From the sequence record NZ_CP069398.1: a stretch of DNA of 64,000 nucleotides. One strand, 5' to 3'. Shown here one piece after another: positions 3,332-49,257 of this stretch. The DNA comes from a plasmid. How positions within the stretch are numbered: the first letter of the stretch is position 1; each line of letters starts with the position of its first letter. The notes below the pieces were generated by a model. That model ran no database searches, was not told where the DNA came from, and saw only the letters and a program-made list of their open reading frames with translations. A program made the position numbers and the translations under genes.

Positions 3332-3742
3332 TCAATCATTATTTATTATCGAATTTAGGTGATTGGATAAATGTCTTTTTTGATTAGGGGTTAATTTATT
3401 CAGTGTTCTTAAGAGCGACATATCGTTTATAACAAGAGTTTCTGTTACTTCAATATCTTCAGAAGATAACCTATCTAATATAAGTGCGATGCGTTCATTA
3501 TGAACCTGAGGAACATTTAAATTTTCACTCTGCTCAGAAGGTAATATGTCGTAAAGGGTAATGCCTAATACATCACAGATATTTAGCATTGATTCAAATG
3601 TGCCAAATCTTGTTCCTCGTTCAATAGCACTAATAGTAGTCTGAGAAGTGTTAGATAACTTGCCTAATTCAATGGTGGTCATACCTAGGCTTTTACGATA
3701 CTCTTTAATTTTTGTACCAATATATTTTTTTAGCTCATCCAT
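3332..3742 (-). CDS. XRE-family HTH repressor (cI/ImmR-like element repressor candidate)
   Basis: It has the N-terminal HTH ...LGMTTIELGKLSNTSQTTISAIERG and a C-terminal extension. It is transcribed divergently from a small Cro-like XRE gene. Confidence 0.7.
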   Translation of the reverse strand: MDELKKYIGTKIKEYRKSLGMTTIELGKLSNTSQTTISAIERGTRFGTFESMLNICDVLGITLYDILPSEQSENLNVPQVHNERIALILDRLSSEDIEVTETLVINDMSLLRTLNKLTPNQKRHLSNHLNSIINND

Positions 3743-3844
3743 AATTATCTATCTACTTTCCTTAGATTTATTTATTAATTTTATCAAAATAAATAGTTAT
3801 TGTGAAATTAACCGTAAAAATTTAAAATTTTTTGGGTAAAAAAT

Positions 3845-3873
3845 GTTTACAACTTATTCGATAAAGAATATAA
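3845..3873 (+). promoter_or_regulatory. sigma-A-like promoter for the Cro-like gene
   Basis: TTTACA and TATAAT are separated by a 17-nt spacer in the divergent intergenic region. The site lies 14 nt upstream of the CDS. Confidence 0.45.
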
Positions 3874-3886
3874 TGTAATCAAGGAG

Positions 3887-4102
3887 GTGCTGGAAATAAA
3901 GACCATAAAAGAAAAGAGGTTGGAGAAAAAGTGGAGTCAAACCTATCTAGCTCAATTGTCGGGAGTCCCGCAACCTACTATTTCTCAAATCGAAAATGGG
4001 ACTCGTCAATATCCAACGTTTGAAAATATGAAGAAGATCGCAGAGGCATTGGATCTTAAGTTAGAAGATATTTTCTTACCAAGTCACAAGGATATGAACT
4101 AA
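3887..4102 (+). CDS. small XRE-family HTH protein (Cro-like)
   Basis: The 71-aa product has the HTH WSQTYLAQLSGVPQPTISQIENG. The GTG start is uncertain because the RBS AAGGAGG abuts it; an in-frame TTG at 3920 is an alternative. Confidence 0.6.
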   Translation: MLEIKTIKEKRLEKKWSQTYLAQLSGVPQPTISQIENGTRQYPTFENMKKIAEALDLKLEDIFLPSHKDMN

Positions 4103-4133
4103 GTTTTAGAATACTTAACGAGGGGCGATGAAC

Positions 4134-4382
4134 ATGGAAGCACAAAAGCGACTAGCATTCTATGATATATCAGACGCACGGGCGAAAAGTGCCAAAACCT
4201 TTGATGGAAAGTTGTATACGTTAAAAGGAGGGGTAGCTGTAGAAAAAGGAACGGGCGATATCAAACGTGTAGCTGATATTTATTATGAAGTACGTTCAGT
4301 AATGGATCAGGCCCATACCATCGTCGCCAAGCGAAGAAAGAAAGATGAGGAATTGAAGGAAGTTTTACAAAAGACCTGCTAG
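4134..4382 (+). CDS. hypothetical protein
   Basis: An ORF with an ATG at 4134 after GAGGGG. No recognisable motif. Confidence 0.35.
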   Translation: MEAQKRLAFYDISDARAKSAKTFDGKLYTLKGGVAVEKGTGDIKRVADIYYEVRSVMDQAHTIVAKRRKKDEELKEVLQKTC

Positions 4383-20907: not shown

Positions 20908-21165
20908 ATGGATATTCTTTTACGAGATATTGATCCAACTGCCGTAAAAAAAATAGATGAGATTGCAAAAGAAAAAAAGATTTCTCGTCAAGAATTCTTA
21001 AAAGGTCAGGTTGAAACGCTGGCTGTTTTTCAAGAACAAAAAGTTCGTGAAGCAGAACTCGAAAATATCATCTATAAAAATATAAAGATGATGGAAAAAT
21101 GTGCAGTGGCAATTGAAACAATCAATGGATTTATTCGAGATATGACGGGGGAAGATGAGGAATGA
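20908..21165 (+). CDS. small relaxosome accessory protein candidate (ribbon-helix-helix-like)
   Basis: An 85-aa basic/acidic protein immediately upstream of, and overlapping, the relaxase gene. Confidence 0.4.
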   Translation: MDILLRDIDPTAVKKIDEIAKEKKISRQEFLKGQVETLAVFQEQKVREAELENIIYKNIKMMEKCAVAIETINGFIRDMTGEDEE

Positions 21166-22358
21166 GTACGCCTTCTGTTATTCCAGGCGTGGTGTTGAAA
21201 ACAAAATTTGTTACATCCGATAAAAAGGCTTTTCAAGATTATGTTGATTATGTAGATCGTGATGATGCGAAAAAAGAACAGGAAGCCCACGAGAAACTAT
21301 TTACTCTTTATCAAGATTATATGGATAACCCTGATAAGGCATCTTCTTTGTTCACCCACCAATCGAATCAATTGAATGACGAGGAGAAAAAGCAATTAAA
21401 AAAGTTGTTTGAAAAAGCGCAGAAAAATAACAGTATTATGTGGCAAGATGTTATCACATTTCATAATCCTTGGCTCCAAGAAAATGGTTTATACGATGCT
21501 GATACTCATACAGTGGATGAGAAAAAATTAATGGATATTACCCGTCAGTCTATGAAGGAAATGCTTAAAAGGGAAAGGTTAAATGAGTCGGCTGTTTGGT
21601 CAGCTGCCATTCACTACAATACGGGAAACATTCATATTCATATTGCGACAGTAGAACCACAACCTACTCGTGAACGAGGCAAAAGAAAGCCTAAAACGTT
21701 GGATGCGATGAAGTCAACAGTCGTGAATCAAATTTTAAATCGAGGTGAGCAGCACCAGAAAATAAATGAGTTAATTCGAAAGGATATGGTCGGAAAAAAG
21801 AAGCAGGATTCTTCATTAAGGTGGAAGAATCGTGACATTCAACCATTGTTTCTACAAATCTATAATCATCTTCCAGAAGATAAAAGGCAGTGGCAATATA
21901 GTTACCGAACATTAAAACCAATGAAGCCATTTATTGATGTGTTGAGTCAAAAATATATTGAAAAGTATCATCGTAATGAGTACCAACAATTACTTGGAAA
22001 ATTAGATAAGGAAGTAGAGGAATTAAAGAAAGCCTATGGAGAAGGAAAGGTTGATGAGAAACGATATAAGGACTATAAGCAAACGAAAATTGATGATCTT
22101 TATAAGCGAATGGGCAATGCTTTCTTAAAAGAAATGAAAGATTATGATAAGCAGCAGCAACAGATTAAAAGAATGATAGAAAGTAAGAAACAATCAAAAC
22201 GTCCTGCAAGTTTTAACCAAAAGGTCTCTATGCATTTTGCATTAAAAAAGATGGAGCGAGCGTTTAAATCAGAATATGAAAGTTGGAAAAACCAACAACA
22301 TTATGAACGATTACAAAAAGAAATTGAACATAATCGTCAGGAAGAGAGGAGTTATTAA
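21162..22358 (+). CDS. MOBP/MobA-type conjugative relaxase
   Basis: Motif III is HYNTGNIHIHIATV, a 3-His HxDxxxxHxH-type. The N-terminal relaxase domain is followed by a Lys/Glu-rich C-terminus. Confidence 0.7.
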   Translation: MSTPSVIPGVVLKTKFVTSDKKAFQDYVDYVDRDDAKKEQEAHEKLFTLYQDYMDNPDKASSLFTHQSNQLNDEEKKQLKKLFEKAQKNNSIMWQDVITFHNPWLQENGLYDADTHTVDEKKLMDITRQSMKEMLKRERLNESAVWSAAIHYNTGNIHIHIATVEPQPTRERGKRKPKTLDAMKSTVVNQILNRGEQHQKINELIRKDMVGKKKQDSSLRWKNRDIQPLFLQIYNHLPEDKRQWQYSYRTLKPMKPFIDVLSQKYIEKYHRNEYQQLLGKLDKEVEELKKAYGEGKVDEKRYKDYKQTKIDDLYKRMGNAFLKEMKDYDKQQQQIKRMIESKKQSKRPASFNQKVSMHFALKKMERAFKSEYESWKNQQHYERLQKEIEHNRQEERSY

Positions 22359-22843: not shown

Positions 22844-23119
22844 ATGTTTTTTAACAAAGATTTAGTGTTAGCTTCGATTAAAGCTGTAGGAGAGGATCAT
22901 GCCATTGTACAGTATCAAGACAAAGAAATAGAGGTGAATTTAAGTCCAGAAGAAGCGAAGGAGTTTCATCAATATGTGGTGCATCAAGAAAATATGTTGG
23001 TGCCAATGAATATTAAAACACAGAAGCTTTTTGTGGATTTAGAGGAACCTTGGTATGAACAAGAATTAGAAGAGCTTAAGGGGATCTCCTATCAAGAAGA
23101 GGGGGATGAAAATGAGTAA
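22844..23119 (+). CDS. hypothetical acidic protein
   Basis: A 91-aa ORF with AAAGGAGGAAG as RBS. Confidence 0.4.
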   Translation: MFFNKDLVLASIKAVGEDHAIVQYQDKEIEVNLSPEEAKEFHQYVVHQENMLVPMNIKTQKLFVDLEEPWYEQELEELKGISYQEEGDENE

Positions 23120-23798
23120 AACGTATGCGAAAAAATCTGTGGAAGATAAGCGTAAAGAGGTTGAAGAGTTAACGAAAGGGATGGAACAAAAAGTAGAGCA
23201 GCATTTTCATTCTGCCGATGAATTAAAAGACTATTTATCTTTTATGGGTAAGTTTTATCAATACTCCATGTCGAACACAGCTCTTATTCAAGAACAATTC
23301 TTTGGTGCTCAAGCTGTTGGCTCATTTAAGTTTTGGAAAGATAAAGGTTTTTCTGTTAATAAAGGGGAGAAAGGCATTAAGATTCTTGTGCCAAATAAAA
23401 CGGTTCCTAAATTTAAAGATGAAAATGGGAAATTAAAGTCCATTAATAAAGCCACTCCTCAAGAAAAGAAGCTAATTAAAGAGGGGAAAAAAGAAGTCAC
23501 TCAAGGCCGACTGTATTTTTCAGTCGGCCATACGTTTGATATTAGCCAGACGAATGCGAAAGCAAGTGATTTACCTAAGATATTCCCAAATCGTTGGTTA
23601 GAAGGCAACGTGGAGGACTACAAGGCGCTTCATAAAGGAATGGAAGCCATTGCCGAAAAGAATGGTATTTCCATCATTGCTCCTAAAGAAGAACTAGGCA
23701 GCGCAAAAGGCGTGTGTTATCCATTAACGAAGGAGGTTGCGTTAAATCCTCGTAACTCTGAACGTCAAAATGTAAAGACGCTTCTTCACGAAATGACT
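23106..23798 (+). CDS. ArdC-like protein (ssDNA-binding N-domain plus zincin metalloprotease), exon 1
   Basis: The ArdC-N-like motif is YQYSMSNTALIQEQ. The exon ends ...LLHEMT immediately before the intron 5' GTGCG at 23799. It ends in phase 0. Confidence 0.65.
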
Positions 23799-26388
23799 GT
23801 GCGTCCATAAGGATGTGTTTGGGATTGCTGTCGTAGCAAACAGCTGATGTGGTCATAACATCATAAGGTCAAAGACTTATTGATATTCTTAAATATCAAG
23901 ACACTCGTGGTGGGAAACCATCAGGGGGACAATAGCATGTCTATAAAGCCACAAGTTACTGGCGTGTTACAGTACGACTGGATGGCAAGACCAAAGTAAT
24001 AGACAAGGATGAAAGCTATACTGCTTAAATGATAGCCAGAGGGGTTATATCGTGGACCATAGTAAACAACACGTGAAATGCTATGCAAGTGGGGATTTCA
24101 ACGGATGCGTCATACGTTGAAATATGACCTCCCACTGACCAACATCGATAAGATGATAAATGGCGAAAGTCACATCCGATACTATTACAAGCTTCCCTGC
24201 ATAATCTAAATGGAGATTGTCTAAGTCAATAAGCCCTTACGGGCTATGTTCATTGGGAACTGAAAAATTGATATGACAACGGAGTCTTCGTACTAGTTTG
24301 AGATAGGGAAAGCCTATCACGCTAACATCAGATAACGCATGTTAGATCATAGCTGTGAAGCTAGGATGGCGAAGGAAGACAGTTAACTGAATCCAATATT
24401 ATAAGAAGAAGGAGCGAGAGGCTCTATGAGAAATCCTCAAGTGGTATTGGACAATCTAACGAGTAAGTCCAAGGATGAAAACTACAAGTATCAAAGAGTT
24501 TACAGAAACTTATACAATCCTGAGTTTTATCTTATGGCATATGATGAAATCTACCCTAACCCTGGTAACATGACTAAAGGGTCAGATAATAAAACAATCT
24601 ATGGCATGAGTATGAAGAGAATTACTAATATTATTGATTCTCTCAAGGACGAAAAGTATCAACCGACTCCAGTAAGAAGAACCTATATCCGCAAAAAACG
24701 TGGTAATGGCAAAAGGCCACTTGGTATTCCATCATTTGATGACAAACTGTTACAAACTGTAGTCAAATATATTCTGGAAAGTATTTATGAAAGTTCGTTC
24801 AGTAACAAATCCCATGGGTATCGGCCAAACAAAAGCTGTCATACGGCTATTAAGCAAATTGCTGACACATTTAATGGAGTAAAGTGGTTTATAGAAGGAG
24901 ACATAAAGGGCTTCTTTGATAACATAGACCATTCTATTTTAATTGATTTACTTCGCAAAAGAATAAAAGATGAAAAGTTCCTAAGGCTTATTTGGAAATT
25001 TCTTAAAGCAGGATATGTAGAGGACTGGAAATATAATAATTCATACAGTGGTGTGCCTCAAGGAGGGATTATTAGTCCTATCTTATCTAATATTTACCTT
25101 AACGAATTAGATAAATTCATCGAAGAATTCCAACATAAATTCAATAAAGGTAAAAATAAGGCACAAAACCTTGACTACAAAAAACTGCACGCAAAAAGTA
25201 TGCGTCTTAAAAAGAAATTAAAGGACAAAGTCGCTAAAGGAACTCTCAAAGAAGGCGAACGTGAAGAAATTATTGGTTATATCAAAGAAGCGAATAGTAG
25301 AAAAATGAAATTACCTTCAAAAGATCCTATGGATCAAAACTACAGAAGACTGAAATACGTCCGGTATGCGGACGATTGGCTAATTGGCATTATTGGCAGT
25401 AAGGAAGATGCGGTCAGAATCAAAAAAGAACTAACTGAGTTTATCAGGAACAAATTGAAACTTGAACTTTCACAAGAAAAGACACTTATTACAAACGGTA
25501 GGAAGTTTGCTAGATTTCTAGGCTATGACATTGCCATCAGCAGAAATCAACAACCAAAACCGACTTCAAGAACTGCAGGGGAACAAATGAAGGTTCTTTC
25601 ACGTTCTAACTCTGGAACAGTCTCCATTTACATGCCAAAAGAGGCTTGGGTTAGTAAACTTATAGAATATAGGGCTATAAAAATGGAGGGAGCTAACTGG
25701 AAACCAATGCATCGTAGGGTACTGGTCAATAACGATGATTTGGAGATTCTCACTCGTTATAACGCTGAAATTAGGGGCATGTACAACTATTATAGGCTAG
25801 CACTAAATGTAAGTGGACTCAACAAGTTTAAATATTTTATGGAATACAGTTTATACAAAACCTTTGCCAATAAATATAAAACATCTATAAGCAAAATAAA
25901 AAATAAATACTGCATTAACGGAGTCTTTGCGGTTAGATACAAAACGAAGAAGGATCATAGAACTCAATACTTGTATAATGATGGATTTAAACGAAATAAT
26001 TCTATAAAGACAGACCACATTAACACAGACCTGCCTATCAGTAAATTTGACTTTGGTAGAACTAGTCTCATTTCAAGGCTAAAGGCGGAACGATGTGAAT
26101 GGTGCCATAAAGAAAATGTTGAATTAGAAATTCATCATGTAAGAAAATTGAAGGACTTGAAAGGTAAAAAGCTATGGGAAAAAGCAATGATAGCCAGAAA
26201 CCGCAAGACAATAGCACTTTGTGCTTTAGGAAAAGGGAATGACTGTCATCGCAAACTCCATGCTGGACTGTTAGATTGAAGTAAGTTAATGGCGAGCCGT
26301 ATACATGGAGACGTGTACGTACGGTTCTGGGGGGGATGCTTGGGAACCTACCATAGTAATATGGCAAGGCACTGGGTATCTACCCTAC
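23799..26388 (+). mobile_element. group II intron (bacterial, ORF-containing)
   Basis: The 5' end is GTGCG. Domain V, GAGCCGTATACATGGAGACGTGTACGTACGGTTC at ~26294-26327, is a near-perfect match to the group II catalytic-hairpin consensus. An RT/maturase ORF lies in domain IV. Splicing at 23798/26389 restores an in-frame HEMTHAKLH (HExxHxxxH). Confidence 0.8.
24426..26279 (+). CDS. group II intron-encoded reverse transcriptase/maturase with C-terminal HNH endonuclease
   Basis: RT motifs are present, including YADD (VRYADDWLIG). The C-terminus has the maturase X domain and an HNH/Zn endonuclease-like CEWCH...HH...C...C..H region. Confidence 0.9.
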   Translation: MRNPQVVLDNLTSKSKDENYKYQRVYRNLYNPEFYLMAYDEIYPNPGNMTKGSDNKTIYGMSMKRITNIIDSLKDEKYQPTPVRRTYIRKKRGNGKRPLGIPSFDDKLLQTVVKYILESIYESSFSNKSHGYRPNKSCHTAIKQIADTFNGVKWFIEGDIKGFFDNIDHSILIDLLRKRIKDEKFLRLIWKFLKAGYVEDWKYNNSYSGVPQGGIISPILSNIYLNELDKFIEEFQHKFNKGKNKAQNLDYKKLHAKSMRLKKKLKDKVAKGTLKEGEREEIIGYIKEANSRKMKLPSKDPMDQNYRRLKYVRYADDWLIGIIGSKEDAVRIKKELTEFIRNKLKLELSQEKTLITNGRKFARFLGYDIAISRNQQPKPTSRTAGEQMKVLSRSNSGTVSIYMPKEAWVSKLIEYRAIKMEGANWKPMHRRVLVNNDDLEILTRYNAEIRGMYNYYRLALNVSGLNKFKYFMEYSLYKTFANKYKTSISKIKNKYCINGVFAVRYKTKKDHRTQYLYNDGFKRNNSIKTDHINTDLPISKFDFGRTSLISRLKAERCEWCHKENVELEIHHVRKLKDLKGKKLWEKAMIARNRKTIALCALGKGNDCHRKLHAGLLD

Positions 26389-27054
26389 CATGCCAAGTTG
26401 CATACGACTGAATCACGAGCAAACTATACGGATGCGGAAAGAGAATTTCAGGCGGAGATGACAGCCTATACGGTTTCGTCTTATTTTGGCATTGATACGA
26501 GTGAATATTCTCTAGGGTACTTGTCACACTGGACGAAAGGAAAGAGCTTTGAAGATAAAACCAAGCTTTTAAAAGAAGTACATGAAACGTCCGTTGGCTT
26601 TATTGAAACAATAGAAGAAACGTTGGTAAAAGAACGAGAAAAAAACCAGTCACCAGAAAAAAACGATGAAAAACAGCAGCAAGCAGATCCTCTTTCTTCT
26701 CAAAACGTGCATGAGAAAATGAAAGAAGGTTATGAGAACTATAAGCAAAAGCAGCAACAGGAATCGTCACAAAATGTAGATAGTATTTTAGATCGTGTCA
26801 CGGCTGAAGAGAAATATTATTCAACCAAAACACAAGCGATCAAAAATGGATGGATGACAAAAGAAGAAGTCGTGAAACTTGAACATCAGATCGATTCGAA
26901 CGTCACTAAAAACGAGAAGGGAGTCATCAATGGTCAAGTTCAGGAACAATCTCTTACTTTTCAAGAACGTGTTGAAGTGGGTAATCACATGCAATTCCAA
27001 AAACGTACAGGCACCGTCAAAAAGAAAAAAGAAGAACAGGAACTCGAAAGGTAA
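26389..27054 (+). CDS. ArdC-like protein, exon 2 (metalloprotease domain and C-terminal tail)
   Basis: It begins HAKLHTTESRANYTDAEREFQAEMTAYTVSSYFGID. This matches the ArdC-C zincin pattern HExxHxxxH...E....AE. The METCTY start given in the ORF track lies inside intron domains V/VI and is an artefact. Confidence 0.65.
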   Translation, partial: HAKLHTTESRANYTDAEREFQAEMTAYTVSSYFGIDTSEYSLGYLSHWTKGKSFEDKTKLLKEVHETSVGFIETIEETLVKEREKNQSPEKNDEKQQQADPLSSQNVHEKMKEGYENYKQKQQQESSQNVDSILDRVTAEEKYYSTKTQAIKNGWMTKEEVVKLEHQIDSNVTKNEKGVINGQVQEQSLTFQERVEVGNHMQFQKRTGTVKKKKEEQELER

Positions 27055-27445: not shown

Positions 27446-27495
27446 ATAAATAATCCTTTCTTTCACATTTAAAACCAAATTAATTGGAGGAATAT

Positions 27496-28530
27496 ATGAT
27501 GAAAAAAATTACGTCTCTTTCAAATGGCCAATTTAAAACGTTTATTTCCGATAAACGAGAACTCAAGAAGTTTATGAAACACCCACAAAATGAAAAGATC
27601 GAGGCAGGTTGGGCAAATATCAGTGGTGAACAGCTGCAAGACATTCCTTCTGGTGCTGTTTACTTAACACAATCAGCTATAGGGGAAGAAAAACCGCAGG
27701 TTTTGTTTGTTTCCACCGATGAAAGAGGGCAAAAACAAGCCTATGAAAGTGAAGCAACACTTGATTTTTTAAAGAGTCATGATGTGAACCCTGTTTTAGA
27801 GAAAGGTCGAGAAACGCAGCTCAAAACGAGCTATATTACGTTTTTACAGGCTCATGATAAAGAGAAACCTCAAGATATTGATAGCATGTTAGCCCGTGTG
27901 AATGCAGAAAACGATTATGTCATGTTGAAATCAAGTGCCTTAAAGGAAAAGCAGTTCACCTCTGACCAATTGAAAGGTATGGAGAATGAGCTTTCTCATC
28001 AGTTTCAAGCACGTAAACAGACACAAGAAAAGGACCGATATCAAGAAGATTACAAACAAGAAGTACTAGAAGTTATGCAGCAGCCTAGCGAAGAAACACA
28101 GTATAAGCAGCTATTTAAACAAAGCTTGTTAGCCCAATTAGGCATATCAGATGAAAAAGATTCTTCTAAAGGAGTGAAAAAGGAAGCTGAATCAGAAAAG
28201 ACTCCTGTCGAAAAGCAGCTCAAGCAAGAAACACCTCAAGAGAAAGAGCAGCGTTTGGCCAAAATGAAGGAGTTTGAACAAAAGCATTCCTTTGATAAGG
28301 TGTACAAATTGAAAAAAGAAGTGCTGCAGGAATTAAAAGAGCTCAATTTGACTGATTCTCAACGTGAGAAATTAACCAAGCTTGAAAAGGCTTTAGACAC
28401 GGAGAAAAAGGATCATGACAAGCAGAAAAAAGAAGAGAAATCACAGAATGGATTTACGAAGTTTTTTGCACGGAATAGTGGAGCAAATTCTTCGAGAAAA
28501 CAGAAAGAGACACAAGAAATGGAACGTTAA
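27496..28530 (+). CDS. hypothetical coiled-coil protein
   Basis: GGAGG precedes the ATG at 27496. The C-terminal half is Lys/Glu/Gln-rich. Confidence 0.45.
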   Translation: MMKKITSLSNGQFKTFISDKRELKKFMKHPQNEKIEAGWANISGEQLQDIPSGAVYLTQSAIGEEKPQVLFVSTDERGQKQAYESEATLDFLKSHDVNPVLEKGRETQLKTSYITFLQAHDKEKPQDIDSMLARVNAENDYVMLKSSALKEKQFTSDQLKGMENELSHQFQARKQTQEKDRYQEDYKQEVLEVMQQPSEETQYKQLFKQSLLAQLGISDEKDSSKGVKKEAESEKTPVEKQLKQETPQEKEQRLAKMKEFEQKHSFDKVYKLKKEVLQELKELNLTDSQREKLTKLEKALDTEKKDHDKQKKEEKSQNGFTKFFARNSGANSSRKQKETQEMER

Positions 28531-36168: not shown

Positions 36169-36210
36169 GGGGTACGACCGAGGTACTTGTAAAAAAGGGT
36201 CATAGCATGG
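36169..36210 (+). repeat. Tn3-family terminal inverted repeat (left)
   Basis: GGGGTACGACCGAGGTACTTGTAAAAAAGGGTCATAGCATGG. Confidence 0.85.
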
Positions 36211-36582
36211 ATTTTTTTTACATTTACAACCCTTTTTACTCTGTAGGGTAGGGTGGGGTCAGAAAAGTGCGGTTGTTGGTAGGATCCTAATAGGGGTAGT
36301 GTCATTGTCGCTACTCCTATTAAGGAATACTTAAACTAAATCACAAATTAATAAGAAGAAACACATCTTAAAAAATGAGCATTGAACCTTTGCATAATAA
36401 GCAAAAGTCCTTTAAAATTTGTTAGCCGGGTAGAAAATGCTATAATGCTCTTATAAAAAAGAATGGATGCAAAATAGTTTAGGTAAGTTCTAAAACGATT
36501 TCTTTTATTCTTCGACAAACAGGCCAGATTCGTAATTTCTCAAGAGAATAATACAAGTCGCTGTAGGGGTTTTTGTGTTTTT

Positions 36583-37570
36583 TCACTTATGATTACTTTG
36601 ATATACAAGACCTATTTCATCTCTCACTTTATCCAACACTTGTATCGTGGTGTATGAATTTTTATATGAGTTAGTATCAGACTCTGTTTTTCCTCGGTTG
36701 ATTAATTCAATAAATTCTTTCACTTCGTAATACATAGCTGGATGAGATTGGTCGACTGTTAATTGTTCAACCGTGCCGTCAGTGTAGTGAATTTCTACTT
36801 TTTCAGCCGTATGAATCTTATCAATCATGATACTTCCTTTTTCGCCTTGAATTTCGCTTGGTAAATAAGAGTTCGTTATTTTGGAATACATCACAATCGC
36901 ATCTTTATCATCATATTTTAAGATGACGCTACCTTCACCATCCACACCCGAATCAAGCATAATGCCAGTTGCCTTCACTTCTTTTGGTTCACCAAATAAT
37001 GTAATAAGTGGATACAAACAATAGACACCAAGGTCCATTAATGAACCGTTCGCAAACTCTGGATTGAAGGCATTAAGGACAATTCCTTCTTTGTATTTAT
37101 CATAACGAGATGAATACTGACAATAGCTTGCAAAGTATCTACGGATAGGACCAATTTTATGTAAATTATCTTGAATGACCTTGAAGTTTGGAAGTAAGGT
37201 TGATTTCATTGCTTCCATTAATAGGGCGTTATGATCTTTTGCGGCTTGAATCATCCTCGCTACTTCGGTTGCATTAACAGCCAGTGGCTTTTCACATAAC
37301 ACATGTTTGCCATTTTGCAAAAATAAAATAGCTTGTTCTGCGTGATATGAATTGGGAGTAGCCAATGTACACCGCGTCAATTTCTTGACTAACTGCCATT
37401 TCTTTTAGGTTTGTAAATATTTTTGTTACTCCATATTTACTTGCAAATTCTTCTGCTCTACTAATCGTGCGAGAATAAACAGCAGTTAGTTTAAAATCTT
37501 CTACATCATTTGCTGCTTCAAGTAATCTTTCTGTAATCCAATTAGTACCGATTACGCCGAATCGAACCAT
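36583..37570 (-). pseudogene. Gfo/Idh/MocA-family NAD(P)-dependent oxidoreductase, frameshifted
   Basis: Two overlapping ORFs together encode MVRFGVIGTNWI...IDAVYI / ATPNSYHAEQA... An apparent +1 insertion (extra G in TACATTGGCTAC) near 37362 changes the frame. Confidence 0.55.
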
Positions 37571-37928
37571 TTATTCAACCTCATTCCTTTGTTTTATAAA
37601 ACGAAGAGTTTTGTTTACTACACTTATGAAGCGTTTTTCATCGCCAATAGGATTTTATTTTCCCATAAAAAAACTTATATAGACATGGGGCCTACCAGTG
37701 AAATATTGGTGATAACCCAAATAGGGCTCATACTGTGAGTGATGGCTAAATTCTTGGCTGTGCCCCACCCAATAATGATCTCTGATCCGGCCATAGAAGG
37801 GACTGAATCAGAGGCTATTTTTTCTTTCCTGTATGGACTGTGTTATTTGTAATATGCAGTAAAGACCGCAATTCATAAAAGAAATAAATGCGGTCTTTAC
37901 GATGTTTCCATATTTTTTAAAGTGTACT

Positions 37929-38486
37929 CTATTCGAGATTGGCATGTTTGCCGTACATTTTAGTAGAGTCTAAGCCTTTTTTTTCCATAAAACGCAAGAT
38001 CAATGCATCATAAAATAATAACATCGTTTGCTCAAAAAGTGACCCCATTGGTTGTATGGTCTTATATTCACTTTCAGATTGATCTTTCGGTGATCCAGGC
38101 AATTTAATGATAATATCAGCTAATTTTCCAATCGTGGAGTCAGGGGAAATCGTTACAGCTGCGACCGTCCCACCTAAACTTTTTGCTTTTTCAGCGATTG
38201 AAACCAAGGTTTTCGTTTCACCTGAACCTGAACCGATGATCAACAAATCACCTTTTTCTAAATTTGCTGTTACAGTTTCACCGACTACATAAGCATCGAT
38301 CCCCATGTGCATCATTCTCATCACGAAAGATTTGCCCATAAATCCAGATCTGCCCGCACCTGCAACAAAGATTTTTTTGGATTCCAGAATCTTATTAACC
38401 AACTTCTCTGCTTCTTCGTCAGAGATTAAGTCGACTGTCCGACTTAATTCTTGAACGACTTCAGCTAAATATTGAGTAGTTTTCAT
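37929..38486 (-). CDS. hxlB: 6-phospho-3-hexuloisomerase (SIS domain)
   Basis: A 185-aa SIS-domain protein (VAGAGRSGFMGKSFVMR...IIGSGSGET) directly downstream of hxlA, as in the Bacillus hxlAB operon. Confidence 0.8.
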   Translation of the reverse strand: MKTTQYLAEVVQELSRTVDLISDEEAEKLVNKILESKKIFVAGAGRSGFMGKSFVMRMMHMGIDAYVVGETVTANLEKGDLLIIGSGSGETKTLVSIAEKAKSLGGTVAAVTISPDSTIGKLADIIIKLPGSPKDQSESEYKTIQPMGSLFEQTMLLFYDALILRFMEKKGLDSTKMYGKHANLE

Positions 38487-38494
38487 AGTTATAA

Positions 38495-39127
38495 TTAACC
38501 TTGTTTAATTAATTCTTGCATTTTAGCTGCAACTGCTTTTTTATCGTCTTTGCTTGTGATACCGCCACCTACGATGACAAGATCTGGTTGTACTTTAATC
38601 ACATCTGGAAGTGTTTCTAATTTGATTCCGCCTGCAATAGCAGTTTTCGCATTTTTTACAACGCTCTTAATGGTTGCAAGGTCTTCGAAAGAATTTTTTC
38701 CTACAGCTTGAAGGTCATAACCTGTGTGAACGCAGATATAATCTACTCCTAGTTCATCCAGTTCTTTCGCACGACCTTCAATGTCTTTAACTGCGATCAT
38801 ATCAGCAAGGATTTGTTTACCTTGTTTTTTTGCTTCTTCTACAGCACCTTTAATGGACTCGTCTTCAGCTGTACCAAGAATGGTGATGATGTCAGCGCCT
38901 GCTGCAGATGCTTGGCTAACTTCATATCCAGCTGCATCCATGATTTTAAGGTCAGCTAATACAGTTAAGTTAGGGAAGGCAGCTTTCACTTCCTTTACTG
39001 CTTTAAGGCCTTCATTAATCACAACCGGCGTGCCGATTTCTACAACATCTATATGATTTTCTACTTCTTTCACCAATTCAATGGCTCCTGGAATATCTAC
39101 AAGATCTAATGCTAATTGTAATTTCAT
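38495..39127 (-). CDS. hxlA: 3-hexulose-6-phosphate synthase
   Basis: MKLQLALDLVDI...VEIGTPV...VLADLK..DA...GVDYICVHTGYDLQAVG...IAGGIK...VIVGGGI is about 70% identical by eye to B. subtilis HxlA. Confidence 0.85.
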   Translation of the reverse strand: MKLQLALDLVDIPGAIELVKEVENHIDVVEIGTPVVINEGLKAVKEVKAAFPNLTVLADLKIMDAAGYEVSQASAAGADIITILGTAEDESIKGAVEEAKKQGKQILADMIAVKDIEGRAKELDELGVDYICVHTGYDLQAVGKNSFEDLATIKSVVKNAKTAIAGGIKLETLPDVIKVQPDLVIVGGGITSKDDKKAVAAKMQELIKQG

Positions 39128-39331
39128 TTATTACTCGCTCCTTATATAATAGTATAATTGTGCCGTATAGCTTTCTTTTGCACAGTGTTATTGTATCCAA
39201 TTGATAGCTATTTACTAACGGTATGATACTCAGTATACTGGGTATGTTACTAAATTAAAAGTATGCACTTTTTTATCATATAGTAACAAAAAGTATACTA
39301 TGGGACATAATAAGGGTTGGAGGTGAAATGA

Positions 39332-39697
39332 ATGCCGAATCTTGGGGAAAAAGTGTTTAATTGTGAAAAAGAATTGACTCTTTCGATTATTGGTGGAAAA
39401 TGGAAAATGTTGGTATTGTGGCATCTAGGAAAAGAAGGAACCAAACGTTTTGGTGAACTAAAGGCCCTCATGCCGGGTATCACTCAAAGAATGCTTGTTA
39501 ATCAATTGCGCGAACTTGAAGACCATTTGATTGTTCATCGTGAAGTCTATCCTGTCGTTCCACCAAAAGTTGAATACTCACTCACTGAGTATGGAAGAAG
39601 TCTGATGCCTATTCTGGAAGCTATGTATGACTGGGGTAAAGATTATATTGAGAATGTATTGGAAAAAGAAACAGAAAACAAATCGTCTATTCAGTAG
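39332..39697 (+). CDS. hxlR: HxlR-type winged-helix transcriptional activator
   Basis: The HxlR/MarR-like sequence ...[16 protein letters not shown]...[25 protein letters not shown]... lies divergent from hxlAB. Confidence 0.8.
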
Positions 39698-39863
39698 AAA
39701 AAAGAGTTTCTCCTAGGGGTTCGAAAAAGTGTAAAAAAGTTCATATACTAACAAACCACGGTTAGCTATCTTAATAAAGATGCTGTCCGTGTTTTTTTAT
39801 ATCTCTACGTATTTAAAAGGTTGAAAAAACACAACATTTAATAAAAGAATCAGTTACTAAAAA

Positions 39864-39908
39864 GCCAAGGGCAGCGAATCTTGTATAATCGCTGTCCTTG
39901 GCTTTTCA
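39864..39908 (+). terminator. strong rho-independent terminator after hxlR
   Basis: A 14-bp stem, GCCAAGGGCAGCGA..TCGCTGTCCTTGGC, followed by TTTT. Confidence 0.7.
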
Positions 39909-40158
39909 CTCTTGGTATTGGATTCAAGTTTATAGTATTATTTTTAACACTATGTTATACCAATGTATCTATATGTTAATAAAGTGCGTACTTTCAAAAG
40001 TATAACATACGTAATATACTGATTTTGCTCAAGTAATAGCGAGCTTAAAGAATACTACCAAACCTTAAGGGAATACTGCTACAAGCATGGTGAGATGAAG
40101 TGAAACTTCATTTAATAATTTATACATGTTGTTGCTTTTTACGAAAGGAGAGATCCGC

Positions 40159-40323
40159 ATGGAAAGGTTCAAAACTAAGCAGCGAAAAGTTTGTGAAAGA
40201 TGTCTAATCATCACCATAAATAATGAAACCTGTCCAAAATGTGGACATTCTCAATTAAGAGATATCATTATTACCGGACAAGCTGGGAGAAATAAACGAA
40301 ACTTACATCCAAAAGTAGGATAA
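40159..40323 (+). CDS. small zinc-ribbon protein, hypothetical
   Basis: CERC...CPKCGH (four Cys). AAAGGAGAG lies 8 nt upstream of the ATG. Confidence 0.4.
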   Translation: MERFKTKQRKVCERCLIITINNETCPKCGHSQLRDIIITGQAGRNKRNLHPKVG

Positions 40324-40419
40324 CGCAATAGCGAAAATCCTTGTTGTTTTGTAGGGGAAACGAAGAAAATCAGACATTTTTCTATTTGAAAATGCTTTGA
40401 AAAAGTGGAGGAATGAAAA

Positions 40420-41892
40420 GTGGATTCTATGACGTTTGTCTTATTTGGGGCAACTGGGGATTTAGCTAAGCGAAAAATCTACCCTGCCTTGTTTAATTTA
40501 TATTTGAATCAAAAATTACCAGATTCTTTTTTGATCATTGGTGTAGGAATAGACGAAATGTCTGATGTTGATTTTCAAAACCATGTAACAGACTCGCTAT
40601 ACACTTTTTCTAGACACTTGATAAATGATAAATCCGAAAAACAAGAGTTTGTAAAGGCATTTCGTTATTGCCAGTTAGATTTCACGAATGCTGAAGGGTA
40701 TAAGAAGTTAGTTGAAGTCGTTCAACAAAATGAAAAAGACCAGAGTATTGAAGAGAATCGAATGTTTTATCTTTCTGTTGCTCCTGAATTCTTTGATGTA
40801 ATTGCTTTAAACATAAAGGAGAGTGGCTTAGGTTCGACAAAGGGATGGAAACGATTGATTATCGAAAAACCATTTGGGTATGACTTAAAATCTGCTGAAG
40901 ATTTAAACGAAAAATTAAGCAAAGCTTTTGAAGAAGATGAAATTTTCCGGATTGACCATTATCTCGGAAAACCAATGGTTCAAAACCTTGAAGCCTTGGA
41001 ATTTGCCAATCCTGTGCTGCAATCACTTTGGAACAATCGGTTTATTGCCAATGTGCAAATTACGGCTAGTGAAACGGTTGGTGTAGAAGAGAGGGCTGGT
41101 TATTATGACCAAGCAGGCGCTATTCGTGATATGGTTCAAAATCATATGCTACAGCTGTTGATGATGACAGCCATGCATCTCCCAAAACAGATTAGTGCAA
41201 AAGATATCCGTAATGAGAAAAGAAAAGTTATGGAATCTCTGCGACCATTACAGAAAAATACTGTAGGTATCCACGTCGTTCGTGGCCAATATGGATCAGG
41301 TGAAATAAACGGTACACCAGTAGTCAGATACTTAGAAGAACCTGGCGTTGATGCTTCTTCTAAAAACGATACATTCGTCGCTGCTCGTCTATGGATTGAT
41401 AATTCCTTCTGGGACGGGGTCCCATTCTATATCCGGACAGGAAAAAGAATGACGGAAAAATTAACGCGGATTGTGATTGAATTCAAAAACCCATTAAAGA
41501 ATTTGTATACCAATGAAATCCAAAATGCTGAACCCAATCTATTAGTTATTAATGTAAGTCCTAATGAAGGTGTTTCGTTGCAGTTAAATAGTAAAAACCC
41601 GATAAATGGAAAATTAGAACCTATTGTTGTTGATTTTTCAGCGAGTAAAAAAGACGTGCCCGAAGCATATGAACTCTTAATATTTGATGCTCTGCGTGGG
41701 GACTCTACCTTCTTTGCTCATTGGGACGAAGTTGAATTATCTTGGAAATGGGTACAGCCCGTTTTAGAGGCGTTTGAGGAAAATGCCCTTCCACTCCACC
41801 TATATCAAGCCGGTTCGATGGGGCCACAAGCTGCTTCGCAATTATTGGAGGAGGATGGTTTTAAATGGTGGGAAACTAGGGGGGGAGTTTAA
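40420..41892 (+). CDS. zwf: glucose-6-phosphate 1-dehydrogenase
   Basis: The N-terminal NADP-binding motif FGATGDLAKRKIYPAL and the G6PD signature RIDHYLGKPMVQNL. GGAGG lies 9 nt ahead of the GTG start. Confidence 0.9.
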   Translation: MDSMTFVLFGATGDLAKRKIYPALFNLYLNQKLPDSFLIIGVGIDEMSDVDFQNHVTDSLYTFSRHLINDKSEKQEFVKAFRYCQLDFTNAEGYKKLVEVVQQNEKDQSIEENRMFYLSVAPEFFDVIALNIKESGLGSTKGWKRLIIEKPFGYDLKSAEDLNEKLSKAFEEDEIFRIDHYLGKPMVQNLEALEFANPVLQSLWNNRFIANVQITASETVGVEERAGYYDQAGAIRDMVQNHMLQLLMMTAMHLPKQISAKDIRNEKRKVMESLRPLQKNTVGIHVVRGQYGSGEINGTPVVRYLEEPGVDASSKNDTFVAARLWIDNSFWDGVPFYIRTGKRMTEKLTRIVIEFKNPLKNLYTNEIQNAEPNLLVINVSPNEGVSLQLNSKNPINGKLEPIVVDFSASKKDVPEAYELLIFDALRGDSTFFAHWDEVELSWKWVQPVLEAFEENALPLHLYQAGSMGPQAASQLLEEDGFKWWETRGGV

Positions 41893-42090
41893 TCCGCACC
41901 TCCCTGGAAGGCTATTGGTATGAAGAGAGCAAACCGAGGTTGGATTTGACAGATAATTGTTACGCGATTTACCCAAGGAACTTAAAGTATTTGTTGAATC
42001 CTTATGGTTCCATAAGGAGACCATGAAGAACAACAAATGGGTAGCATAATAATACAGGCTATTTTTTGTAATTTAAAGGAGGAAACTCAA

Positions 42091-42984
42091 GTGAAAGTAG
42101 GATTAATTGGATTAGGGAAAATGGGTATGAACTTAGGAAAAAACTTAATTGACAATAAACACCGTGTAATGGCGTTTGATCTAAATACAAATACTATTGA
42201 AGAAATTAAAAAATACGGAGTTGAAGGAGCATCCAGTTTACAAGATCTTGTTCAATCATTAGAAAAGCCACGAGTTGTTTGGATAATGGTCCCACACTCC
42301 GTCGTTGATTCAGTTATTAGTGAAATCACACCATTTCTAAGTGAAGGAGATATCGTCATTGAAGCTGGTAATTCGCATTATAAGGAATCCATTCGTCGTT
42401 ACGAACAGTTGAAGAAAGTTGGAGTGAGCTTTATGGATGCCGGTACTTCTGGGGGGATGGAAGGTGCTCGCTATGGTGCTTGTTATATGATTGGTGGAGA
42501 TCCTGAAGCATGGAGCATTGTCGAGCCGATTTTTAGAGATACAGCTGTAGATAATGGGTATTTATATGCTGGGAAATCTGGTAGTGGCCACTTCTTAAAA
42601 ATGGTCCACAATGGAATAGAATACGGAATGATGGCCGCCATTGGTGAAGGATTCGAAGTCCTGGAAAAAAGCGATTTCGATTTTGACTATGAAAAAGTGG
42701 CACGGGTGTGGAATAACGGTTCTGTCATCCGCTCATGGCTCATGGAATTGACAGAACGCGCATTTTCTAAAGATGCAAAATTAGATGAAATTAAGGGCAT
42801 TATGCATTCTTCTGGGGAAGGGAAATGGACAGTTGAAACCGCTTTGGATCTTCAAACAGCTACCCCTGTTATCGCTATGTCTTTACTAATGCGTTACCGT
42901 TCATTAGACAATGATACATTTACAGGTAAAGTGGTAGCTTCCCTTCGTAATGAATTTGGCGGACATGCTGTGGAAAAATCATAA
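42091..42984 (+). CDS. 6-phosphogluconate dehydrogenase (decarboxylating), short ~300-aa form (YqeC/GndA-like)
   Basis: The GTG start at 42091 follows AAGGAGG. It has the Rossmann fold GLIGLGKMGMNLGKNL plus GGDPEAW and KMVHNGIEYGMMAAIGEGF. Confidence 0.8.
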   Translation: MKVGLIGLGKMGMNLGKNLIDNKHRVMAFDLNTNTIEEIKKYGVEGASSLQDLVQSLEKPRVVWIMVPHSVVDSVISEITPFLSEGDIVIEAGNSHYKESIRRYEQLKKVGVSFMDAGTSGGMEGARYGACYMIGGDPEAWSIVEPIFRDTAVDNGYLYAGKSGSGHFLKMVHNGIEYGMMAAIGEGFEVLEKSDFDFDYEKVARVWNNGSVIRSWLMELTERAFSKDAKLDEIKGIMHSSGEGKWTVETALDLQTATPVIAMSLLMRYRSLDNDTFTGKVVASLRNEFGGHAVEKS

Positions 42985-43094
42985 AGTCATCTGCTGTATA
43001 TGTCTTTCGTTAAAATGAGCCGGAAATTCATTGGATTTTTAGTTTGGTATATCCCAAAAATTGGTAGATTTACTTAAGTCGTTGATAGTGCTAA

Positions 43095-43300
43095 CTATGT
43101 TGATTGAAGCGGAAGGAGCGAGACTCCTCGAAAATGCATTCACATTTTCTCGTGCGGTGCCTATTCACGGATGATGATTCAACGTCCTGCGGGAAAAACA
43201 TGACAAGGGAGACCCCGCAGCCGCACAGCGCCGAGGAGGCTCCCGGCTCGCCCGCGGAAAGCGAGCACCTGGAGCCAACAGACAAGTTTAACAGAGCCAA
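43095..43300. other. GC-rich multi-hairpin intergenic element of unknown function
   Basis: Four local hairpins, GGAGCGAGACTCC, GAAAATG-CATTCA-CATTTTC, CTGCGGG-N20-CCGCAG and GCTCGC-CCGCGGAAA-GCGAGC, sit in an AT-rich context. ORFs across the region on both strands have implausible composition. Confidence 0.35.
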
Positions 43301-43330
43301 AAAAATAAAACAATATTGAGGTGTGACATC

Positions 43331-43822
43331 ATGAACGTATTGGATGCAAAAATCATTAACACACAATATGGTTTAGAAACCTATTTAGACATGGTGAAGA
43401 ATATCGAAGTAAAAGAACTCCATTCTCCATCAGATAATGAGCCCTTTTATGAAATAGTATTAGGGATAGAGTATTTTCTTCTAAGGGACGGAAAATATTA
43501 TGATAGTGAAAGGAATTATTTTCGGATTCAAATGAGCGAAGATTTTAATTCAATCACGTTAAGAGAGACAGATACCGAAAGTTTATTTGCTGTCAAAACC
43601 GAACACGAGAGAGACTCAACTAAGCTACTGGTTGGAGAATGGCTTATAAAAACCAATGCTTTCAAGCAAGTAATAAGTGAACTGATCCAACAAAAGAAAA
43701 TGGAGAATGTTCAAAATGAGGGAGACACTCGAAAAGTATTAGGAACGATAAGATTCTTGGAAATATTACTTGAAATCAAAACAGAAGACATACTAAGTGC
43801 CGATGTAGAGAGGGACCATTGA
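43331..43822 (+). CDS. hypothetical protein
   Basis: The ATG at 43331 lies 7 nt after GAGGTG. A 163-aa acidic product. Confidence 0.45.
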   Translation: MNVLDAKIINTQYGLETYLDMVKNIEVKELHSPSDNEPFYEIVLGIEYFLLRDGKYYDSERNYFRIQMSEDFNSITLRETDTESLFAVKTEHERDSTKLLVGEWLIKTNAFKQVISELIQQKKMENVQNEGDTRKVLGTIRFLEILLEIKTEDILSADVERDH

Positions 43823-44062
43823 GTTTTCTTAATACTAACTGTCTTTTAATGTACGCTATTGATAATTACACGGTCCCACTAAGGATTTTTCAAAATTGAA
43901 AAGGGGGAGTTTAAATGTGTTTTTAAAAACTTCCCTTATATACTGTAGAAAAGGAGAATGCACTAACATGAAACGTTTTACTATGCCGAGAGATCTTTTT
44001 TACGGAGAAGGATCTCCGATTGAAGCAGCTAAGCTAAATTTGATTGAAAGGGGAAGTAATGT

Positions 44063-45400
44063 ATGACTATTTCGTTTGATTACTCCAATGCATTAGCATT
44101 TATGAAAAAGAGTGAAGTAGATAATCTAAGTGAATTTGTAAAAGTGGCTCATAAAATGCTACATGAAAAAACAGGCCCCGGCTCTGATTATCTTGGTTGG
44201 GTCGATTTGCCACTAAACTATGATAAGAGTGAATTTGAAAGAATTAAACAAGCTGCTGAAAGAATCAAGAAACATTCAGACGCAATGGTTGTAATTGGTA
44301 TTGGTGGTTCGTATTTGGGTGCAAGATCAGCTATAGAAGCTTTGTCCCATAGCTTTCATAACCAAATGAACGATAAGACAAAAGTGTATTTTGCCGGTCA
44401 CAATATCAGTTCTACTTATATATCTCATTTATTTGAACTATTAGAGGGGAAAGATATCTCTGTTAACGTCATTTCCAAATCAGGAACAACGACAGAGCCA
44501 GCCCTTGCTTTCCGTATTTTTCGTGACTATATGGAGAAAAAATACGGAAAAGAAGAGGCGAGAAAACGTATTTTTGCCACTACTGATCAGGAAAAAGGCG
44601 TATTAAAAAAGCTCGCGGACAAAGAAGGATATGAAACGTTTGTTATTCCGGATGATGTAGGTGGAAGGTATTCTGTGCTAACAGCAGTTGGTCTCTTACC
44701 AATTGCCGTAGCAGGACTTGATATTGATCATATGATGGAAGGGGCAGCAGCAGCAGCCCGTAAATACAACAATCCTGATTTATTGACAAATGAGAGCTAT
44801 CAGTATGCTGCGGTCCGAAATGTACTCTACAATAAGGGAAAAGCAATTGAAGTGCTTGTTAACTATGAGCCCTCCCTTCACTACGTATCGGAATGGTGGA
44901 AGCAGCTGTTTGGGGAAAGTGAAGGAAAAGATCAAAAGGGGCTATTCCCTGCTTCCGTTGATTTTTCAACGGATTTGCATTCCATGGGGCAATATGTACA
45001 AGAAGGTCGACGAAACCTTTTAGAAACGGTTTTACAGATTAAGAAACCTCGAATTGAAGTGACTATTCAGGAGGATCCAGAAAATATTGATGGATTAAAC
45101 TTCCTGGCAGGTAAGACGATGGATGAAGTCAACAAAAGTGCATTTCAGGGTACCCTTATGGCCCATATAGATGGAGAAGTACCTAATCTCGTGATTGAAC
45201 TGGATGAAATGAATGAATACACTTACGGTGAGATGGTTTACTTTTTTGAGAAGGCATGTGGGATTAGTGGCCATCTATTAGGAGTTAACCCATTTGACCA
45301 GCCTGGAGTCGAAGCATACAAGAAGAATATGTTTGCTTTACTTGACAAACCTGGTTTTGAAGCAGAAAAAGCTACTCTCATGGAGCGTTTATCAAAATAA
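44063..45400 (+). CDS. pgi: glucose-6-phosphate isomerase (Bacillus-type ~450 aa)
   Basis: The N-terminus [16 protein letters not shown]...[17 protein letters not shown] closely matches Bacillus Pgi. The SIS domains are present. Confidence 0.9.
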
Positions 45401-45409
45401 TTATATCTG

Positions 45410-45600
45410 ATTGGTTTTGTATTAATAAAAAGATTGTTACCAAAAACCATATTTTTTGTAACAATATTTATGAGAAATACTGATGCTTGATTTTACTAAT
45501 TTTATAGGTTACCAAAAATAATTACCAAAAGTTTTACCAAATACTTTTACAAAAATGATGTCTCTTGTACAATTAGATTATTAAATTGTGCAGGAGGCTT
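45410..45600. promoter_or_regulatory. res (resolution) site candidate upstream of tnpR
   Basis: TTACCAAAA-type motifs are repeated (TGTTACCAAAAACCA, GGTTACCAAAAATAATTACCAAAAGTTTTACCAAATAC). TGTNACA-like half-sites are consistent with three resolvase binding subsites. Confidence 0.45.
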
Positions 45601-45604
45601 CTTT

Positions 45605-46171
45605 ATGATAATCGGTTATGCTCGAGTTTCGACAGTTGACCAAAATTTAGACCGACAAATTATATTACTTTCTGAGTACGGCTGTGAAAAAATGGTTCAA
45701 GAGAAATTTACTGGGACTACAAAGGATAGAGATGGACTTAACTCATTGCTAGATGTAATAAGGAAAGGTGATACCGTTGTAGTAGAAAGTATTTCACGCT
45801 TAGGGAGAAAAACACTTGATATTCTTTCTATTATTCAGCAATTCGAGGATACTGGTGTAAAGTTCGTTTCTATTAAGGAGAACATGGATACAAGAACATC
45901 AACGGGAAAAGCCATGTTTCAAATGATGTGTGTCATCGCAGAGTTAGAAAGAAATTTAATTGTAGAAAGAGTTAAAGAAGGGTTAGAAGCGAGTAAAAGA
46001 AGAGGAAAAAAACTAGGAAGGCCTAAAGTGGATCAAGGGAAAATTGAAATAGCCTTGAGGATGTATGACAGTAAAGAATACTCGGTAAAAGAAATTGTAG
46101 AAGGTACAGGACTTTCACAGGGATCATTATATCGAGCGATTAATAAAAGAAAACTAGTAGAAGCAAATTAA
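45605..46171 (+). CDS. tnpR: serine recombinase / resolvase
   Basis: MIIGYARVSTVDQNLDRQ... carries the catalytic Ser, and the C-terminus is an HTH. The gene is co-directional with tnpA. Confidence 0.9.
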   Translation: MIIGYARVSTVDQNLDRQIILLSEYGCEKMVQEKFTGTTKDRDGLNSLLDVIRKGDTVVVESISRLGRKTLDILSIIQQFEDTGVKFVSIKENMDTRTSTGKAMFQMMCVIAELERNLIVERVKEGLEASKRRGKKLGRPKVDQGKIEIALRMYDSKEYSVKEIVEGTGLSQGSLYRAINKRKLVEAN

Positions 46172-46242
46172 TAATCTCTTATATTTTTAGGGAATTATGT
46201 GACGGACTAGGGCAGCTACTCTGTCACCACCCCCAACTTAAT

Positions 46243-49209: not shown

Positions 49210-49257
49210 TATATAAGAAAGTAAAGAGCAAGAAAGGGTTATAAATGGTAAACAATA

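Follow-up and report, generated by a model that had tools for sequence, protein, structure and literature searches.

The stretch of 64,000 nucleotides (nt) from sequence record NZ_CP069398.1 analyzed in this work (hereafter the window) is part of a conjugative plasmid of Priestia megaterium and carries a group II intron within a gene encoding an ArdC-like protein. The intron is inserted between codons 4 and 5 of the invariant HExxH motif of its host (HEMT/H; here and below a slash marks an insertion point or an exon junction). Judged from the sequence, it is very probably a mobile and likely active intron of the LtrA/Ll.LtrB type that retrohomed into the HExxH coding sequence, whose splicing restores the full-length ArdC-like protein and which would behave as a selfish retroelement. 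The features discussed below are collected in Table 1.

The first-pass annotation of the window had placed the start of the intron (GTGCG) at 23799, domain V at 26294-26327 and the exon junction at 26388/26389, and all three positions hold on reading of the sequence and on the match to the Rfam model RF00029. Exon 1 ends with CTT CTT CAC GAA ATG ACT (...LLHEMT) at 23798, in phase 0 as had been stated, and exon 2 opens at 26389 with CAT GCC AAG TTG CAT, where the first CAT is the codon for His232, so the joined frame does recreate HEMTHAKLH. When 23106-23798 is linked to 26389-27054 an open frame of 452 codons results, ...NVKTLLHEMT/HAKLHTTESRANYTDAEREFQAEM..., and the ligated exons are expected to read ...GAAATGACT/CATGCCAAG at the nucleotide level. 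The junction is present uninterrupted in nature. Comparison of 23106-27054 with PLSDB by megablast yielded 57 plasmid records, nearly all of them from Priestia or Bacillus; in every record the match is restricted to the two exons (~34% of the query), lying at one place of ~1,357 bp, and none carries the intron of the window. In the P. megaterium plasmid pNCT2_1 (L002) window positions 23121-23798 correspond to 3001-3678 and 26389-27054 to 3679-4344, contiguous at 3678/3679, and in plasmid CP137804 (L001) the exons meet at 6688/6689, which fixes the insertion point exactly where it had been predicted. The intron-less plasmid alleles of P. megaterium are 88-97% identical to the window exons in nucleotide sequence and unbroken across 23798/26389. 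A protein search likewise returned intron-less homologues of 450 amino acids (aa) with up to 95% identity, named ArdC-like ssDNA-binding (single-stranded DNA-binding) protein or ImmA/IrrE metallopeptidase. The proposal that the flanking open reading frames (ORFs) are unrelated genes and that the HExxH reconstruction is accidental is therefore refuted and retains practically no probability: intron-less alleles are colinear with the window base for base across the junction, and full-length homologues carrying the invariant HE..H span it as one gene.

Group II introns begin with the consensus GUGYG and end with AY. Both ends of the present intron conform, with GTGCG at 23799 and CUAC finishing at 26388, directly after domain VI. 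RF00029 matched the + strand at 26292-26388 over the full model (1-77) with 63 bits (gathering score 40, E 5e-10); this match, the sole Rfam match in the window, terminates precisely at the 3' splice site. The minimum free energy fold of an ORF-less version (intron 1-600 plus 2482-2590) recovers the hairpin of domain V, a bulged A26382 in domain VI and, in a hairpin loop, the exon-binding site EBS1. The intron-encoded protein (IEP) is intact and contains reverse transcriptase (RT; RVT_1, 122 bits), maturase (Intron_maturas2, 52 bits) and HNH (AI2M-like, 75 bits) domains, bearing out the earlier description of a complete ORF-containing intron. It aligns end to end (residues 5-600) with LtrA of Ll.LtrB (PDB 5g2x) at E 2e-154, keeping YADD and the cysteines and histidines of HNH, and the next RTs in PDB match it at E 1e-41 or weaker. 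By these sequence features the element would be a bona fide intron of the LtrA/Ll.LtrB type with an IIA-like RNA and an RT-X-HNH protein.

The host protein, spliced, is 452 aa long when read from ATG 23106 (453 aa had been given) and 450 aa when read from ATG 23112. Its homologues begin with MSK..., matching ATG 23112, and share the length of 450 aa, and ATG 23112 is probably the true start. Read without splicing, the gene stops three codons into the intron (ORF 23106-23810), giving a product of 234 aa that carries ArdcN. In the spliced protein the N-terminal, ssDNA-binding ArdcN domain (PF08401, DUF1738) covers residues 19-115 with 40.3 bits against a cut-off of 22.6, and the top Pfam match of the C-terminal zincin domain is Peptidase_M78/ImmA-IrrE (34.2 bits). 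The Pfam C-domain of ArdC, MPTase-PolyVal (PF18818), fails its threshold (16.5 against 27.5 bits). Alignment with canonical ArdC by hhalign nevertheless included both domains (75% probability, E 2.5e-5) and paired TLLHEMTHAKLH with TLFHEMIHSTGH and EREFQAEM with KEELVAEM, E250-F-Q-A falling on E-L-V-A. Since hhalign aligns the zincin domain and PF18818 fails, this domain is considered homologous to the C-domain of ArdC yet a member of another subfamily, and the original label of an ArdC-like host is kept with this restriction. PDB sequence and profile searches with the protein gave no match at E <= 1, so Pfam and hhalign are what connect it to ArdC. No NCBIfam model matches it, and AlphaFold2 with a 14-sequence alignment produced a model too poor for fold searches (mean predicted local distance difference test, pLDDT, 56; predicted template modelling score, pTM, 0.37).

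HEMTH corresponds to residues 228-232 of the spliced protein. In the 14-sequence alignment H228, E229, H232, A233, L235 and H236 are invariant, as are E248, E250 and E254 in EREFQAEM, and the HExxH helix with a downstream Glu helix constitutes a gluzincin layout. The metal ligands of R388 ArdC are H201, H205 and E229, the last located on the following 'glutamate helix' (PMC7213743). Because R388 ArdC uses a Glu on the next helix, E250 or E254 is more likely than H236 to act as the third metal ligand, though H236 is invariant. The zinc motif was initially written as HExxHxxxH: its HExxH part and the conservation of H236 stand, whereas H236 is doubtful as a ligand. As a separate observation, the C-terminal third of the ArdC-like protein (~27000-27054 and upstream; ...QNVDSILDRVTAEEKYY...) resembles residues 97-170 of the product of the next ORF, 27484-28530 (BLASTP E 2e-08). 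Both proteins terminate with ...QE[LM]ER, an ending kept in homologues, which may represent a common module or a transfer signal.

To describe target recognition, related IEPs were traced to contigs and the 3' ends of their introns were set by Rfam; for L037, the 3' boundary of which is uncertain (short Rfam match), only the 5'-exon pairings were used. In the window EBS2 pairs with its intron-binding site, IBS2, at all six positions and EBS1 with IBS1 at five of six, with a C.U mismatch at -1. The delta sequence and EBS1 sit in an 11-nt hairpin loop, GAUGCGUCAUA, closed by the stem UUUCAACG/CGUUGAAA. Among 11 distinct copies EBS1 is the sole hypervariable patch of domain I, which is otherwise 86-95% conserved, and the EBS1 of each copy complements its own IBS1: 59 of 66 positions are paired, compared with 39.6+-3.9 when EBS1 and IBS1 were shuffled among the 11 copies; none of the 100,000 permutations attained 59. 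EBS2 is constant save where the target differs (U:A replaced by G:C at -8 in L037, G.U by A-U at -10 in L033). G24107, 5' of EBS1, is able to pair with C+1 in all copies, and the delta AUG complements CAU at +1 to +3 (delta', 26389-26391) in the ArdC sites. A delta-delta' pairing next to EBS1 is a trait of IIA introns, IIB introns using EBS3-IBS3 instead. Group IIA introns recognize their targets by this set of elements, EBS1, EBS2 and delta (PMC3898094). Eight target positions are invariant among 11-12 sites (A-21, C-20, T-14, C-12, A-11, G-9, C+1 and A+2). A-21 and C-20, part of a conserved Thr codon, are probably contacted by the IEP, since they lie outside the paired region, where LtrA contacts its target (PMC3898094).

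Other candidate guides were considered and rejected. CGUGAA (intron 274-279) as EBS2 mispairs in L016, L021 and L004, whereas UCGUGG pairs in all copies and covaries; hexamers with 5-6 positions complementary to IBS1 at intron 53, 245, 370, 426 and 485 are invariant among copies with differing exons. No second, unoccupied homing site was found in the window within 3 mismatches.

Table 1 Features of the intron and its host gene in the window, and zincin-gene sites occupied by related introns
Feature	Position	Strand	Description
Group II intron	23799-26388	+	2,590 nt, GUGCG...CUAC, IIA-like, LtrA-type IEP
Exon 1, ArdC-like gene	23106-23798	+	693 nt, 231 codons, phase 0; ArdcN and first half of zincin domain
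Exon 2, ArdC-like gene	26389-27054	+	221 codons and stop; holds H236, Glu helix EREFQAEM, C-terminal tail
IBS2	23786-23791	+	UCACGA, positions -13 to -8; covers His228-Glu229 codons (CAC GAA, 23787-23792)
IBS1	23793-23798	+	AUGACU, positions -6 to -1; variable 'xx' codons Met230-Thr231
EBS2	24050-24055	+	UCGUGG, intron 252-257; pairs with IBS2
Delta and EBS1	24105-24113	+	AUG (24105-24107), then CGUCAU (24108-24113)
IEP	24426-26279	+	617 aa; RT, maturase X, HNH/endonuclease (En); identical to GenBank QSF36003.1
Domain V	26294-26327	+	34-nt hairpin, AGC triad
Domain VI	26329-26388	+	bulged branch-point A26382, 7 nt from 3' splice site
Spurious ORF	26305-27054	+	starts inside domain V, runs into exon 2; deposited as 'hypothetical protein ICR95_25475', QSF36004.1
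L003			M78-type ArdC-like allele, HEIT/H
L016-19			M78-type ArdC-like allele, HELG/H
L020 (Bacillus pseudomycoides)			M78-type ArdC-like allele, HELA/H
L035/36			M78-type ArdC-like allele, LPD25 tail, HELA/H
L023			decayed chromosomal remnant of ArdC-like gene, HELA/H
L033 (Bacillus salipaludis)			canonical ArdC, ArdcN and MPTase-PolyVal (114 bits), FHEMI/HSTGH
L005 (Paenibacillus)			canonical ArdC, ArdcN and MPTase-PolyVal (114 bits), FHELI/HSTGH
L027			SprT-like zincin gene, PF10263 (39 bits), MHEMV/H

Besides the zincin genes of Table 1, three copies occupy sites elsewhere that look alike at the nucleotide level: in a DUF8208 tra gene beside VirD4 (L021/22), in a PNPOx gene, in a different frame (L004), and in L037. 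The introns of the window and L016 are 94.6% identical and their exons ~80%; for L020 the respective values are 89.6% and 56-61%. The introns are far more alike than the exons, and the intron has therefore spread horizontally between diverged alleles that existed beforehand. Relatives at a greater distance, with ~55-58% IEP identity (L028-L031), insert at unrelated sites, and HExxH targeting is therefore confined to the clade with IEP identity of at least ~60%.

Other group II introns were observed in the same plasmid family. In pNCT2_1 of P. megaterium NCT-2 (L002, 318-3000) the same ArdC-like gene holds a second, unrelated intron after codon 3 (MSK/TYAKK; window equivalent 23120/23121), recognized by Rfam with 58 bits and encoding an IEP of 599 aa that is 30% identical to the IEP of the window in the RT domain; the ArdC-like gene has thus been invaded independently by two intron classes. 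The L003 contig, labelled 'Sphingomonas sp. PsM26' and probably Priestia plasmid DNA, holds in addition to its HExxH intron another group II intron (120-204, Rfam 58.6 bits), whose end lies immediately 5' of the codons for HIHI in the MobP2/MobL relaxase gene (window equivalent 21630/21631) and recalls Ll.LtrB in ltrB. Genes annotated as 'reverse transcriptase/maturase' or ltrA are also found in the Priestia/Bacillus plasmids NZ_CP009921.1 and CP095861.1 within the type IV secretion system (T4SS) region homologous to window 1-23100. Group II introns seem to be frequent across the entire transfer region in plasmids of this family.

We infer that the intron splices in vivo, the support being indirect: the IEP is intact, the catalytic domains keep their consensus, EBS/IBS complementarity is maintained and the exons are open in frame. 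Apart from this indirectness, several points weigh against the reading of a mobile, active intron on which the host gene depends. The C.U mismatch at -1 (G.A in L003) could lower the efficiency of 5' splice-site use. The positions +1 and +2 never vary and show no covariation, so that the delta-delta' pairing is a putative one; the assignment to the ML/IIA class is provisional, being drawn from LtrA as the best match and from delta adjoining EBS1 rather than from a phylogeny or a complete structure of domains I-IV. All full intron-bearing alleles that were examined keep the two exons open and in frame, yet this is only moderate evidence of selection after insertion because much of the exon divergence predates it, and the copy within a decayed gene remnant (L023) indicates that the association of intron and gene is not always maintained.

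The mismatch and the L023 remnant would also suit a dead insertion, in which the intron no longer splices and the ArdC-like gene is a pseudogene producing at most the 234-aa ArdcN fragment. The GenBank annotators left the exons unjoined and called the spurious ORF, and loss of the C-domain might be tolerated, as the anti-restriction activity of R388 ArdC works without protease activity (PMC7213743). On the same ground the earlier statement that production of the ArdC-like protein depends on splicing applies to the full-length protein, while some of its function might do without splicing. Against a dead insertion, the IEP ORF retains all catalytic motifs, the consensus of domains V and VI is kept, EBS1 tracks IBS1 in 11 copies and the exons remain open and in frame in the window as in all other full alleles; we regard it as unlikely.

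Under the preferred reading of an active intron, the ArdC-like gene would be transcribed together with the mob genes, since in the interval from the relaxase gene to the ArdC-like gene no promoter- or terminator-like signal above chance was found. The IEP, translated from domain IV, would bind the intron and promote lariat splicing, joining 23798 to 26389 and restoring HEMT-H in a full-length ArdC-like protein, whereas unspliced RNA would yield the ArdcN-containing fragment only. The excised ribonucleoprotein would then recognize intron-less alleles through base pairing, with the constant EBS2 (UCGUGG) on CAYGA of the His-Glu codons, the constant delta (AUG) on CAU of the second His codon and the fast-evolving 6-nt EBS1 on the two variable codons. 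That the catalytic motif serving as the target cannot change would be the reason why the lineage has spread horizontally among ArdC-like alleles that had diverged, among ArdC genes of the canonical kind and into at least one SprT-like zincin gene, hopping at times to ectopic sites. With slightly better than even confidence this may be extended to a Bacillales clade of LtrA-type introns specialized on the HExxH of zincins, where EBS2, delta and probably the protein read the fixed codons (Thr...His-Glu and the second His), EBS1 is retuned to the two free codons, and the intron is able to move between ArdC subfamilies without DNA similarity and into a SprT-like gene.

It had also been proposed that the intron serves as an adaptive regulator, the ArdC-like protein being made only when or where the intron splices, e.g. 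timed to conjugative transfer or to establishment in the recipient. This idea is pure speculation and seems very unlikely. The gene does belong to the mob region, and the plasmid has a T4SS of the pLS20 type; ardC genes of pLS20-family plasmids are tightly regulated establishment genes (PMC8708921), and the splicing of Ll.LtrB varies with conditions and has an effect on conjugation (PMC7293003, PMC6003770). Most alleles, however, have no intron (the 57 PLSDB records among them), the intron, which moves horizontally, is far younger than its hosts, the same lineage resides also in unrelated genes, and the documented effect of Ll.LtrB is depressed expression of the host gene and depressed conjugation (PMC6003770). 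For these reasons a selfish element fits better than a regulator.

The plasmid setting is that of a transfer region. The MobP2/MobL relaxase gene (21162-22358, 385-400 bits) is followed by two small ORFs and the ArdC-like gene, and the downstream neighbour of the latter is annotated as DUF3991/TOPRIM in syntenic plasmids. The genes of the pLS20-type T4SS (VirD4-like, VirB4 and pLS20_p028) are located upstream. In GenBank the spliced ArdC-like gene is unannotated and its exons are not joined; the exact product of the exon-1 ORF (23106-23810) is absent from the protein collection searched. Public annotation of these plasmids breaks the gene up, one part being a truncated ORF and the other a spurious 'hypothetical protein'. 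As a consequence, surveys that look for anti-restriction genes on plasmids of Priestia and Bacillus will miss ArdC-like genes or assign them a wrong size. Elsewhere in the window, at ~36169-49299, a segment of 13.1 kb matches P. megaterium plasmid CP069401 with 100% identity and plasmids of Paenibacillus urinalis with ~99.9-100%. The segment encodes a Tn3-family transposase, hxlA, zwf, gnd and glucose-6-phosphate isomerase, and hxlB is annotated on a further matching plasmid of B. subtilis, which suggests a recently spread, transposon-borne ribulose-monophosphate/pentose-phosphate module.

If the proposed course of events is true, a side effect of the insertion would be two products of one gene, a ssDNA-binding fragment with ArdcN only and the complete fusion with the zincin domain. 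The system would offer a clear example from nature of a retroelement that has a catalytic motif as its homing site, in which the sequence data show EBS1 co-evolving with the variable codons while the other guides stay on the invariant ones. It should be useful for studies of how group II introns survive and spread on conjugative plasmids and as a naturally occurring parallel to engineered targetrons, though no new class of biology is opened by it.

The closest known systems are Ll.LtrB, residing in the relaxase gene ltrB of Lactococcus lactis pRS01/sex factor, and Ef.PcfG, introns of the same type as that of the window. The intron studied here shares with Ll.LtrB targeting through EBS1, EBS2 and, putatively, delta, residence in a transfer-region gene of a conjugative element of Gram-positive bacteria and a host whose full-length protein needs splicing, and with both introns horizontal spread accompanied by adaptation to new homing sites (PMC5072309). 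Its host, by contrast, is an ArdC-like ssDNA-binding/zincin gene, known here from sequence alone, and not a relaxase; its IEP is only moderately similar to LtrA, in conserved blocks and with no similarity at the DNA level; and it is in EBS1, compared over many alleles, that adaptation shows here rather than in the IEP. B.th.I1 and B.th.I2 of Bacillus thuringiensis pAW63 are likewise group II introns within conserved domains of tra-region genes, a Tn916 ORF14-like and a VirD4-like gene, and their insertion points were set by uninterrupted homologues (PMC1196294); the window intron differs in host gene and plasmid family. The use of codons of an invariant catalytic motif as the IBS2/IBS1 homing site has a precedent in B.th.I3, M.a.I5, UA.I3 and P.l.I2, which home into RT YADD codons with a specificity common to related introns of different organisms (PMC2504315); here the target is HExxH of zincins instead of RYADD of RTs, and the intron lineage is another one. 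The host resembles ArdC of R388/pSa in its ArdcN domain above the Pfam threshold, in the HExxH helix with the following Glu helix and in its location on a MOBP-type plasmid with a TOPRIM gene nearby, as noted for DUF1738 proteins (PMC7213743), but its C-domain is Peptidase_M78 and not MPTase-PolyVal, and it has an extra C-terminal tail of ~150 aa. Full-text searches of the literature found neither ardC nor an HExxH motif described as the site of a group II intron. That transfer genes of Gram-positive plasmids harbour such introns is already well known, and what would be modestly new in comparison is a whole clade specialized on the HExxH of ArdC-family genes with natural retuning of EBS1.

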